From: a virus
Lineage: Duplodnaviria > Heunggongvirae > Uroviricota > Caudoviricetes
DNA length: 64,000 nucleotides
Virus record (IMG/VR): IMGVR_UViG_2519899835_000003
Direction: 5' to 3' (one strand)
A model generated the notes under the pieces. That model did no database searches. It was given only the letters and a program-made list of their open reading frames with translations, and was not told where the DNA came from. How positions within the stretch are numbered: position 1 is the stretch's first letter; each line of letters begins with the position of its first letter. Below are positions 5,083 to 6,990 of the stretch, piece after piece. A program made the translations under genes and the position numbers.

Positions 5083-5630
5083 GCGAAATTAATTACCAGG
5101 CACTGCGTGAGGTGGCGGAACGTGCAATTCCAGCAATGGAACGCCTGTTAATGTTGCCAGCTGATGATGACTTGTTAAGTGAACAGGAACTTAAAGATTA
5201 CGGTGTGGATATTGATGCGCTCAACGCCTTCAAATTTCTGACCGGACCAGAAACCGTGCTGGCACTGCTGGATGAACGGGAAAGAAACCTGCAATACATC
5301 AAAAGCAGCGATCAGGAGAACGAGGAGATTGCGTTAACGGTAGGGAAGCTGCGCGTTGAGCTTGAAGCAGCAAAATCAAAACTCAACGAACAGCGTGAGT
5401 ATTACGAGGGCGTTATCTCGGATGGAAGTAAGCGCATAGCAGAGTTAGAAAGTGATTCTCAGGCACAAAAGTTAGTTGAAGCAATCATTGTTGCGATAGA
5501 AAACGAACAGGAACGTCTTTTTGATGAAGATTACCTAATGGATTCGAAAGAATGCATTGACGTAATTCGTGAAGAAGTAAAGCGATGGAATGATTCCCGC
5601 GCCGCTGGCATTCGCATCAAAGGAGAGTGA
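5079..5630 (+). CDS. Ead/Ea22-like protein (paralog), coiled-coil
   Basis: N-terminus [15 protein letters not shown]; ends GIRIKGE within the repeated junction cassette. Confidence 0.5.
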
Positions 5631-5631
5631 G

Positions 5632-5955
5632 ATGACCACATCGCATTCTGCAATTACCCAGAAAAAAGCCTTCCACATACTCGAACGATTAGAGGCGCTT
5701 GCTACGGAGGAGGAGATATCCCCGGAGAAACTGGTTGAGTTCAGCCGTGTGATATTGCGTCGCAAGAACGATATGGAGCGGCTGACATCTGGCGCTCCAT
5801 CCTTATCAGTCAGGCGAACACTTTGTTGCAGCTTCTGCAACAAATCCCAGTACGCCGTCAAAAAGTTAATTGCTGGGGACGCCGTTTTCATCTGCGACGA
5901 GTGTGTGGATGTGTGCAACAGAATTATCCGGGGAGAGAAAGAGGGATCAGCATGA
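5632..5955 (+). CDS. Protein with C-terminal ClpX-type C4 zinc-binding domain
   Basis: [34 protein letters not shown] aligns with the ClpX N-terminal zinc-binding domain ([34 protein letters not shown]). Confidence 0.7.
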
Positions 5956-6473
5956 AATTTTCCAAATTTTCTGAGTTGGTGAATCGTATTTTGTCCAACA
6001 ACCACAGCCATCGTCGCGATATGGATGTAACGATCGTTGTTCATTCGCCTGGTCGCATCGGTTCAACACCATCAGTTGAGGTTCAGTCAATTCAGGCGGG
6101 TTTTGATTGGGATGCCGGGAAGGTGATGATTTTTCCAGCACAGCCACTGACCACGCTAACACCGGAGCAGGTTGCTGATATCACTGATAGTGTGCGCAAA
6201 GGTCAGTCTTGGCACGCGTATCAGGAATACAAGAAGCATAAAGAGCAGTTGGAAAAATTGTCGATGGAGTTGGAAGCCGCTAAACAGCGGGAAAAAGATC
6301 TGTTTATGGAAAATGTTCGACTTAAGTCAGGTATAGCCGGTCTGATACACCTCGGTATTCGATATGCAGATGTTGAGGTCATGAAAATTGCTGGAGATGC
6401 CCAGCTTTCTACCCCATGCACTGACAGCATCATAAACAGCATTGCAACAGGCATTCGCATCAAAGGAGAGTGA
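5952..6473 (+). CDS. Hypothetical protein
   Basis: 173-aa ORF; start overlaps upstream stop (ATGA); ends GIRIKGE in the second junction cassette. Confidence 0.55.
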
Positions 6474-6474
6474 T

Positions 6475-6990
6475 ATGGCGTTAACACACCACGAACTCTG
6501 TCAGATTGCGTACAAGTTCCTTAAGCGCAACGGGTTCAAGGTTTGCTTTCATGACCGCTTTATAGCTGTAACCAGTACCGGAGAACAGCCAGATGCTATG
6601 GGATTCAGAAATTCAGCATCATGCCTGATAGAGGCGAAGTGTTCTCGTGCTGACTTGTTGGCAGATAGAAAAAAGCGTTTTCGTAAAAATCCATCTCTTG
6701 GAATGGGCGACTGGCGATTCTTTATTAGTGAGCCGGGAATTATTTCAGTTGAGGATTTACCACCTGGCTGGGGATTACTTCACGTTGTTAACGGAAGAGT
6801 ACGGAAAGTACATGGGTGGCCCAAGGGTAATTGCTGTTGGGGTAATCCTGACGATAAGCCATTTACTGGAAATAAGCAGGTTGAATGCGATTACATGTTA
6901 TCTGCATTAAGGCGCATGGAGTTGAGAGGGCACCTTAATGAAATATATGACGGTGTAATTGTTAATAAGAAAGAAGGAAACGCGGCATGA
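6475..6990 (+). CDS. PD-(D/E)XK superfamily nuclease-like protein (MmcB-like)
   Basis: PDAMGF...CLIEAKCSRADLL fits a D...ExK nuclease core; ATG 2 bp after the cassette stop. Confidence 0.6.
   Translation: MALTHHELCQIAYKFLKRNGFKVCFHDRFIAVTSTGEQPDAMGFRNSASCLIEAKCSRADLLADRKKRFRKNPSLGMGDWRFFISEPGIISVEDLPPGWGLLHVVNGRVRKVHGWPKGNCCWGNPDDKPFTGNKQVECDYMLSALRRMELRGHLNEIYDGVIVNKKEGNAA

Follow-up and report, generated by a model that had tools for sequence, protein, structure and literature searches.

Linker homologies reportedly formed part of the modular theory of Susskind and Botstein (1978), and short conserved boundary sequences of lambdoid phages, seven of them in the metabolic domain, are said to have been proposed as recombination foci by Clark et al. 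(2001). This boundary-sequence or linker idea for lambdoid phages is summarized in later work (PMC3029335; PMC2327257). The 24-mer studied here, GGCATTCGCATCAAAGGAGAGTGA (hereafter the cassette), fits the notion of a "short conserved boundary sequence": it is conserved amid dissimilar lambdoid flanks, is located at gene boundaries, and coincides with mosaic breakpoints. It differs from the lambdoid boundary sequences in its single-gene resolution, being at once coding sequence and ribosome-binding site and dividing individual accessory genes rather than large modules. A second related system is relaxed Rad52-like recombination (Martinsohn 2008, PMC2327257; De Paepe 2014, PMC3945230), in which phages and prophages likewise exchange DNA via limited homology. 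Red-type Bet and Exo are also present here; however, the flanks described in those studies are longer and partly diverged (~80 to 90% identical), whereas the cassette is a very short perfect island. A full-text literature search, which did not cover Clark et al. 2001, found no phage paper with the cassette sequence or with GIRIKGE, the peptide that it encodes. The cassette is a clean example of a known idea and not a new kind of element, and as such it provides an unusually clean, quantifiable case in the old and still debated question of whether the mosaic joints of temperate phages arise at short linkers or by illegitimate recombination. From the sequence comparisons presented below, we consider it about 70% probable that the cassette serves lambdoid phages and prophages as a dual-purpose linker at gene junctions, which would supply homology for exchange and couple the translation of the genes on either side.

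The original prediction that this 24-bp cassette occurs three times in the window (the whole stretch of 64,000 nucleotides that was analyzed), twice exactly on the plus strand and once in a near-identical form on the minus strand, was confirmed by sequence search. Chance matches to the 24-mer had a mean of 0.00, with none found in any of 100 dinucleotide-preserving shuffles. The minus-strand copy (51410-51387) carries a single mismatch (GAGAGTGA to GAGAATGA) and lies in front of the DUF551 gene (ATG at 51385-51383), as had also been claimed. The features concerned are as follows.

5079..5630, plus strand: Ead/Ea22-like gene, 183 aa, ending in copy 1 (Pfam Ead_Ea22, E=1.2e-35)
5607..5630, plus strand: cassette copy 1, exact match; provides the Ea22-like gene with its final 7 codons (GIRIKGE) and its TGA
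5632..5955, plus strand: ClpX-type zinc-finger protein gene, 107 aa, starting one base past the copy 1 stop (Pfam zf-C4_ClpX, E=1.3e-15)
5952..6473, plus strand: 173-aa gene ending in copy 2, no Pfam hit
5631..6473, plus strand: two-gene unit of 843 bases, including its 3' cassette copy, with direct cassette repeats at both ends
6450..6473, plus strand: cassette copy 2, exact match
6475..6990, plus strand: 171-aa gene, no Pfam hit, its ORF starting one base past the copy 2 stop
50801..51385, minus strand: DUF551 gene, downstream of copy 3 (Pfam DUF551, E=1.1e-20)
51387..51410, minus strand: cassette copy 3, with A in place of G at position 21; provides the DUF551 gene with its ribosome-binding site
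51411..51441, minus strand: non-coding 31-base spacer from the DUF977 stop to copy 3, assigned from the sequence
51442..51837, minus strand: DUF977 gene, upstream of copy 3 (Pfam DUF977, E=1.8e-66)
61793..63252, plus strand: Bet (RecT family) and Exo (YqaJ) genes (Pfam RecT, E=3.3e-33; YqaJ, E=2.9e-30)

Copies 1 and 3 have 37 bases in common (CGCT, the 24-mer, and GATGACCAC) with one mismatch, a likeness longer than first described. A candidate fourth copy at 58171-58182 on the minus strand was rejected: only the 12-base 3' half matches there, and it is the ribosome-binding site of an unrelated small ORF.

The cassette consists of two halves. The 3' half, AAAGGAGAGTGA, together with the next base and the ATG after it, combines a Shine-Dalgarno site with a stop and a start codon; in copy 1 the AAGGAG core at 5620-5625 stands 6 bases before the ATG at 5632, with the TGA at 5628-5630 in between, and copies 2 and 3 have identical spacing. 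The 5' half, GGCATTCGCATC, comprises 12 bases without evident translational role (a synonymously recoded version would be, for example, GGTATACGTATT). Copies 1 and 2 encode G-I-R-I-K-G-E and TGA at the ends of the ORFs 5079-5630 and 5952-6473, and the next ATG lies 1 base past the TGA (5632-5634 and 6475-6477). This reading of the ORFs agrees with the earlier claim that two of the copies provide the GIRIKGE codons, the stop, and the ribosome-binding site of the next gene; indeed, every coding copy spans stop codon, ribosome-binding site, and start codon. The arrangement resembles translationally coupled operon junctions, which also have the Shine-Dalgarno site inside the 3' end of the upstream gene and the stop adjacent to the start, and it is likely from this geometry that the 3' half acts as a translational coupling signal; any downstream gene would therefore be translated together with the gene upstream. 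Ordinary coupled junctions differ from the cassette, however, in that unrelated gene pairs do not share sequence identity over at least 24 bases, nor do such junctions put a common seven-residue tail on unrelated proteins. At neighboring gene junctions in the window, ATGA or GTGA overlaps are used. Two other roles were considered and rejected. An RNA element found no support in an Rfam scan of the whole window at gathering thresholds (8 hits, 0 at the cassette) or in folds of the three copies with their flanks, which revealed no common or unusually stable structure (z-scores of -1.8, -0.9, and +0.8). A Chi hotspot (GCTGGTGG) was dismissed by eye, the junction reading GCTGGCAT with 5 of 8 bases matching.

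Searching related phages and prophages revealed the cassette at gene boundaries, as predicted, and the genes that flank it vary between genomes. Among 121 junctions, 15 upstream and 23 downstream DNA classes occur in 53 combinations; at the protein level, 94 junctions represent 46 combinations. When two loci have the same upstream but different downstream sequences, similarity is lost 0 to 7 bases past the TGA in 374 of 399 pairs, and when they have the same downstream but different upstream sequences, it is lost 0 to 10 bases upstream of the cassette in 376 of 411. Pairs with the junction alone in common have a median of 28 identical bases, and in many pairs the identity is prolonged by ~9 partly conserved bases upstream (CGCGCCGCT) and ~20 downstream (ATGACCACTATAACCAAAGA). 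Breakpoints scatter over the cassette and its flanks with no single position, and left-hand homology breakpoints of the region cluster most strongly at copy 2, with 90 HSP ends (bin at 6450). In an unbiased sample anchored on the downstream gene, the exact cassette precedes the 171-aa gene (6475-6990) in 71 of 120 loci, with other junction types elsewhere, and a second figure from such a sample is 56 of 89 loci. What these other types retain is just AAAGGAGAGTGA with one base and ATG behind it, and their 5' halves differ. The cassette itself diverges by 0.15 to 0.74%, compared with 1.3 to 3.7% for the neighboring gene.

An insertion or deletion bounded by two copies is seen in contig L046, which locally matches the window except that it lacks the 843-base unit separating copies 1 and 2 and has a single cassette there. 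Downstream of copy 2 this locus is 97% identical to the window over 500 bases, and upstream of copy 1 it is 97 to 99% identical over ~200 bases and ~55% identical over the next 100, with no similarity beyond. Two further loci (L058 and L103) have the two-copy arrangement of the window, and at 21 loci two or three successive linkers surround units of 196 to 1104 bases. We had also expected prophages at the same chromosomal site (ynfF) to differ exactly at two cassettes, which was wrong for the sibling prophages L351 and L352: they differ from the window by 891 bases (5376-6266), and this difference is bounded not by the cassette but by an Ea22 coiled-coil segment with imperfect homology. The cassette is thus not the sole exchange point but one among several. 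The idea that it serves as a short homology for swapping gene modules is supported, with qualifications: the gene-boundary positions, shuffled partners, breakpoints, and L046 speak for it, while the crossover itself is something we infer, translation signals account for half of the cassette, other exchange points lie nearby, and copy 3 in its exact form is fixed.

If the cassette acts as such a linker, two levels would be at work. At the RNA level, the AAGGAG 6 bases and the TGA 1 base before the ATG would couple translation. At the DNA level, the 24 bases would serve as an island of identity between unrelated flanks, in which homologous or single-strand-annealing recombination between co-resident phages or prophages could cross over, thereby swapping, inserting, or deleting flanking accessory genes while leaving reading frames and expression signals undisturbed. 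Phage Bet/Exo, RecET-type systems, or host RecA would be the likely enzymes, and the Bet and Exo of this same prophage are candidates for such short-homology exchange. The minimal homology for Red and RecA is ~30 bp, and RecET recombines 5 to 13 bp at low frequency (PMC2327257). Since 24 perfect bases are slightly fewer than ~30, individual exchanges would seldom happen and may require the partly conserved flanks as well.

Alternatively, the cassette could be conserved as a translation signal only: illegitimate joints would survive wherever a strong ribosome-binding site, stop, and start stay intact, making the cassette a survivor of recombination and not its substrate. In the literature, the usual competing model is illegitimate recombination (PMC3029335; PMC3945230), and translation signals suffice to explain half of the cassette (AAAGGAGAGTGA with one base and ATG). 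This half is its most invariant part (0 to 0.2% divergence), is common to junctions with unrelated 5' halves (HLRT, MLHG, NIGI), and precedes a start codon at 303 of the 311 sites at which the 12-mer occurs. However, a role in translation alone leaves unexplained why the 5' half is identical beside at least 15 unrelated upstream sequences and why breakpoints occur on both edges of the full 24-mer, and joints formed at random would seldom restore GIRIKGE in frame at the end of an HNH endonuclease or a Mom-like protein. We regard this explanation as unlikely. The pattern could nevertheless arise in part from illegitimate joints filtered by selection for intact translation signals.

Regarding its source, the cassette probably descends from the 3' end of ea22-type genes. 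In lambda, ea22 ends in exactly these 24 bases (NC_001416, 29847-29870) and the downstream start codon has been lost; ea22 closes the conserved exo-xis block, after which the variable genes come (PMC8614690). The exact 24-mer is present in at least 120 viral contigs, a scan for exact matches that selects for identical copies in contigs stemming largely from related, and hence not independent, Enterobacteriaceae isolates. A 32-base query containing the cassette matches 393 phage records and 3069 of 5426 complete Escherichia coli genomes (~57%), at 6807 places and up to 11 times per genome. Because a match is found in over half of the complete E. coli genomes, in lambda, and in Stx phages, the cassette could be a fixed primer or anchor site for surveying the variable accessory genes downstream of ea22 and for designing recombination assays.

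Given this origin, one might ask whether the cassette is merely a leftover ancestral ea22 end that hitch-hikes and contributes nothing to exchange or expression. Two copies, copy 3 and that of lambda, would suit such a scenario, both being relics. Copy 3 is non-coding, as the DUF977 gene stops at 51442-51444 and the GIRIKGE frame meets a TAG 15 codons upstream; its exact form always has the same neighbors (9 of 9) and thus shows no shuffling. It is probably a fossil of an ea22-type gene end that now forms a leader and ribosome-binding site, and the 31-base spacer that precedes it, which also stands before other downstream genes in four loci (L251, L263, L265, and L271), is probably the remnant of the lost gene end. 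Nevertheless, hitch-hiking predicts a single variable flank, whereas both flanks vary independently, and the cassette is more conserved than its flanks, which makes this scenario very unlikely.

A further possibility is that GIRIKGE is a functional C-terminal motif, for example a degradation or interaction tag, under selection at the protein level. A K/R-G-E ending has been noted for every Ea22 protein studied, its "significance unknown" (PMC7093339), and IKGE is kept in the variant tails NIGIKGE and DIRIKGE. However, the codons for K-G-E fall exactly on the Shine-Dalgarno core AAGGAG. Ea22's "+GE" ending is thus probably the translation of the next gene's ribosome-binding site, a simple account of this ending that the cassette offers. 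The tail is also borne by protein families that are not related to one another: at copy 1 and in lambda the upstream gene is a member of Ead_Ea22, and elsewhere the tail is found on Ea22 proteins with several C-terminal domains, an HNH_3 endonuclease, a Mom-like protein, and unassigned families, while copy 3 retains the sequence though not translated as a tail. Among the variant types inside the cassette, six are non-synonymous and one is synonymous. In addition, when 185,579 species genomes were scanned with degenerate codons, phage and enterobacterial contexts yielded no alternative codons, in what is a small cross-genus sample, as the canonical hits were mostly lambda DNA contaminating unrelated assemblies; the 9 non-canonical hits fell in archaea and other unrelated taxa, against ~10 expected by chance on our own estimate. 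Given the mostly non-synonymous variants and the absence of alternative codons, the cassette appears to be conserved as DNA and not as peptide. We rejected selection on the peptide, with canonical codons being the only ones in phage contexts of the scanned species genomes, and find a functional tag scarcely credible.

That the cassette is the recognition site of a site-specific recombinase or homing endonuclease, with units being moved by enzyme-directed cutting and repair, deserves next to no weight: one upstream class is itself an HNH endonuclease gene ending in the cassette, HNH genes are found in this region of some related phage records, and two-linker-flanked units resemble gene cassettes, but just 1 of 125 junctions has an HNH gene next to it, there is no dedicated recombinase linked or consistently adjacent to the cassette, the cassette has no dyad symmetry or consistent hairpin, and breakpoints spread over it and its flanks.

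By analogy only, the linker arrangement recalls integron gene cassettes, with which it has in common small promoterless units, a repeated junction element, arrays of up to three, and an upstream promoter. Integrons differ in having an attC imperfect palindrome and an integrase, neither of which is present here, where exchange would be by general homology. It is tempting to speculate, although we consider it doubtful, that lambdoid phages maintain the whole linker family (GGCATTCGCATC, AACATTGGCATC, and other 5' halves, each with AAAGGAGAGTGA, one base, and ATG) as a gene-cassette platform based on homology, in which continual gene conversion or second-order selection for exchangeability would keep the 5' half identical. 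If this were true, phage annealing recombinases would insert, delete, and array single accessory genes between linkers, a recombinase-nonspecific analogue of integron arrays for the exo-xis, b-region, and nin genes of Stx and lambda-like phages.

Over 107 aa, the 173-aa protein (5952-6473) ending in copy 2 is 68% identical to one Ea22-type protein from the viral loci; it combines a novel N-terminal part with a C-terminal domain also found on Ea22-type proteins, and its similarity to the 183-aa protein is marginal beyond the common tail. In the record identical to this DNA, PGAP annotates only a partial pseudogene at 5115-5450 within the Ea22-like ORF 5079-5630, a warning to annotators that PGAP labels mosaic Ea22 genes ending in the cassette tail as pseudogenes despite intact ORFs.

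The exact 24-mer GGCATTCGCATCAAAGGAGAGTGA occurs twice on the plus strand (5607-5630 and 6450-6473), and a copy with one mismatch (GAGAATGA) lies on the minus strand at 51410-51387, in agreement with the original prediction of three cassettes; shuffled sequence contained no match. Copies 1 and 2 do, as had been proposed, supply the last seven codons of one gene (GIRIKGE) together with its stop, and a single base separates them from the ATG of the following gene. Copy 3 likewise stands directly before the DUF551 gene to which it had been assigned, where it is non-coding: a TAG closes the GIRIKGE frame 15 codons upstream, and the upstream DUF977 gene stops 31 bases before the cassette. 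In total, copies 1 and 3 have 37 bases in common.

Genes at the cassette copies and elsewhere in the prophage
2.9-7.6 kb, plus strand: cluster with Ant, TraR/Orf73, DUF4752, two Ea22-like genes, a ClpX zinc-finger gene, two genes of unknown function, and one gene with dATP/dGTP pyrophosphohydrolase and DUF551 domains
5079-5630, plus strand: ORF ending in copy 1, last codons G-I-R-I-K-G-E and stop from the cassette
5952-6473, plus strand: ORF ending in copy 2, last codons G-I-R-I-K-G-E and stop from the cassette
51385-51383, minus strand: ATG of the DUF551 gene, directly after copy 3
61793-63252: Bet (RecT family) and Exo (YqaJ) genes

Over bases 1-12000, the window matches the chromosome of E. 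coli NCCP15648 at 100% identity, and the element is a lambdoid prophage inserted beside ynfF that carries an N4-gp56-type capsid gene and a giant LPD38 protein. The latter is a single 2783-amino-acid ORF of the large polyvalent kind (8049-16400, minus strand) at the end of the late operon. Past 12 kb (compared over about 12000-47000), NCCP15648 genes have coordinates about 1.3 kb smaller than their counterparts in the window (the DUF551 gene lies at 49499 versus 50801), and the window therefore either has an extra late-region segment or derives from another strain. Copies 1 and 2 are part of the 2.9-7.6 kb cluster, which we infer to correspond to the lambda b region plus the exo-xis accessory genes, because it adjoins the attachment site opposite int and because of its orientation. 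Copy 3 belongs to the rightward early operon, where it has the replication genes on one side and ninB on the other.

The best-supported reading is that the cassette is a dual-purpose linker, coupling genes at the RNA level and providing an island of identity at the DNA level. At the gene boundaries where it is found, 121 junctions with full flanks fall into 15 upstream and 23 downstream sequence classes in 53 combinations, as expected from the prediction that the flanking genes vary among related phages and prophages; when the encoded proteins are classified instead, 94 junctions yield 46 combinations. Sequence conservation drops sharply beyond the cassette, where partial conservation is limited to about 9 bases on the upstream side (CGCGCCGCT) and about 20 on the downstream side (ATGACCACTATAACCAAAGA, encoding MTTITKE). 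When two loci have the same upstream but different downstream sequences, similarity ends 0 to 7 bases after the TGA in 374 of 399 pairs; in pairs with the same downstream but different upstream sequences, it ends 0 to 10 bases upstream in 376 of 411. Pairs with the junction alone in common share a median of 28 bases. One viral contig, L046, matches the window at 97-99% identity for about 200 bases before copy 1 and at 97% identity for 500 bases after copy 2, with a single cassette between; it thus corresponds to the window minus the 843-base two-gene unit (5631-6473). These sharp breakpoints and the cassette-bounded insertion or deletion favor the proposal that the cassette is a short homology for swapping gene modules. 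Two or three successive linkers (the cassette or related junctions) occur in 21 of about 297 viral loci, enclosing units of 196 to 1104 bases, such as a Mom-like gene with a linker copy on each side. The variation in flanking genes holds overall but not for the exact form of copy 3, which has the same neighbors in 9 of 9 cases; behind relaxed versions of this relic, a different gene follows in four loci (L251, L263, L265, and L271).

The cassette is not the sole exchange point. BLAST endpoints within the 2.9-7.7 kb cluster, in a sample partly selected via a downstream-gene anchor, also fall at 5250, 5370, 6980-7000, and 7120, the first two of these marking a conserved Ea22 coiled-coil segment. 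This segment (LLDERERN...LRVELEAAK, 5250-5375) is a second homology island with endpoints clustered at both edges, and Ea22 genes look as if they were laid out as a variable N terminus, a conserved coil, a variable C-terminal domain, and the conserved cassette. Two sibling prophages at the ynfF site (L351 and L352) each have a single chimeric Ea22 gene and a single cassette; what sets them apart from the window is the segment 5376-6266, whose edges lie in the coiled-coil (ELEAAK) region and show only imperfect homology.

Several results argue that the cassette is conserved as DNA rather than as a peptide. The GIRIKGE tail is found on unrelated proteins, including Ea22 with several nonhomologous C-terminal domains, an HNH_3 endonuclease, and a Mom-like protein, and the two window proteins that carry it have hardly any similarity outside it. 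Cassette variants in unbiased samples comprise six nonsynonymous types (G2A, T5C, C7A, T11C, A20G, and G21T) versus one synonymous type (C3T), a ratio, from small numbers, that is close to the neutral expectation, since we count about 24% of all single changes that could occur as synonymous. Among copies with at most two mismatches, a restriction that biases cassette diversity slightly downwards, divergence from the consensus was 0.15-0.74% of positions in the cassette and 0-0.2% in its 3' half, compared with 1.3-3.7% over the following 100 bases of the downstream gene. Searches for RNA elements gave no Rfam family at the cassette and no consistent fold there.

When loci were sampled by an anchor inside the downstream gene, and hence independently of the cassette, 71 of 120 and 56 of 89 had the exact cassette. 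The remainder had other upstream ends, with tails such as NIGIKGE, HLRTKGE, and MLHGKGE, and these junctions have in common only the 12-mer AAAGGAGAGTGA, one base, and the ATG. Across all loci, a start codon follows the 12-mer in 303 of 311 copies. The 12-mer has a perfect AAGGAG core separated from the ATG by 6 bases, consistent with the suggestion that the cassette serves as the ribosome-binding site of the next gene, and a TGA stop separated from it by 1 base; judged from sequence, this spacing is that of a translationally coupled junction. All Ea22 proteins examined have been reported to end in K/R-G-E, with "significance unknown" (PMC7093339); the K-G-E ending (AAA-GGA-GAG) is probably explained as the ribosome-binding site of the following gene.

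The cassette is the exact 3' end of phage lambda ea22 (NC_001416, 29847-29870), although lambda itself has lost the start codon that follows. It occurs exactly in at least 120 loci on viral contigs. A 32-base query (CGCT, the 24-mer, and GATG) matched 393 phage records, including lambda/DE3, many Stx phages, P7, and Salmonella phages, as well as 3069 of 5426 complete E. coli genomes at 6807 places (443 of them plasmid borne; median of 2 and maximum of 11 per genome). When one genome for each bacterial species was scanned with any synonymous codon allowed, there were 47 hits: 38 had the canonical nucleotide sequence, mostly lambda DNA contaminating unrelated assemblies, and 9 with other codons came from archaea or other unrelated taxa, against a chance estimate of roughly 10. 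About 31 species-representative assemblies of unrelated bacteria (among them Streptococcus equinus, Prevotella pallens, Streptomyces, and Bradyrhizobium, and a Shewanella contig of 48,542 bases) hold the lambda ea22 end with identical flanks and are almost certainly contaminated with phage lambda DNA (contigs L121-L125, L130-L133, L136-L142, L144, L146-L153, L155, L156, L158, L160, L161, and L163-L165). A 17-base stretch of the cassette also turns up in a human physiology paper (PMC11322406), where it is probably a lambda spike-in control primer.

Short conserved boundary sequences were put forward as foci of lambdoid recombination by Susskind and Botstein (1978) and Clark et al. (2001), as related in PMC3029335 and PMC2327257, and we rate the cassette as a further case of this known idea because it shows every testable defining feature of such a sequence. 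The competing view is that illegitimate recombination is followed by selection (PMC3029335, PMC3945230). If the cassette acts as a dual-purpose linker, its RNA would couple translation of any gene that follows, and its DNA would offer 24 bases of identity, often about 30-50 with the partial flanks, in which homologous or annealing recombination could occur between co-resident lambdoid elements, so that a crossover would swap, insert, or delete accessory genes in frame. The comparisons show directly the island of identity, its place at gene boundaries, the combinations of partners, the breakpoints, and the insertion or deletion between two cassettes, whereas the enzymes and the crossovers at the cassette are what we infer from them. 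Published minimal homologies are about 30 bp for Red and RecA, and RecET is reported to recombine over 5-13 bp with low frequency (PMC2327257). This puts the cassette among the shortest lengths that such systems use, which would be enough on evolutionary time scales, with single events being rare. A full-text literature search, whose reach did not extend to Clark et al. (2001), found no paper on the cassette sequence in a phage context, and reviews of the exo-xis region describe ea22 as ending a conserved block with variable genes after it and mention no DNA-level linker (PMC8614690).

Several further features of the prophage were observed. The ORFs at 6987-7157 (MTTITKERLL...) and 7060-7647 (dATP/dGTP pyrophosphohydrolase plus DUF551) look like two parts of a single frameshifted gene; in viral loci, intact relatives continue across this point without interruption (...ARIALASLEREQIRHEH...). 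PGAP annotation of the identical RefSeq record calls the 183-amino-acid Ea22 ORF a partial pseudogene (5115-5450) and the 171-amino-acid ORF frameshifted (6475-6653). Both are open in the window, the 171-amino-acid form occurs in 16 viral loci, and the calls are probably annotation artifacts of mosaic genes. Antirepressor-type genes at opposite prophage ends (2929-3558, plus strand; 47548-48213, minus strand) have nearly identical C-terminal halves (...EEIILLCYMQLWMEKAQ...LRARQFEF) and different N-terminal halves, and are another in-gene mosaic. Two P1/P7-type immunity RNA sets (C4 antisense RNA, isrK, and c4 a1/b1 targets; 46682-46880 and 48267-48465, minus strand) flank the ninB and ORF6N-type genes at a distance of about 1.6 kb from each other, which suggests a duplicated antirepressor control module. 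The prophage also carries a hok/sok-type toxin and antisense RNA pair (50180-50504, minus strand) and the small RNA STnc100 (43335-43540, minus strand).
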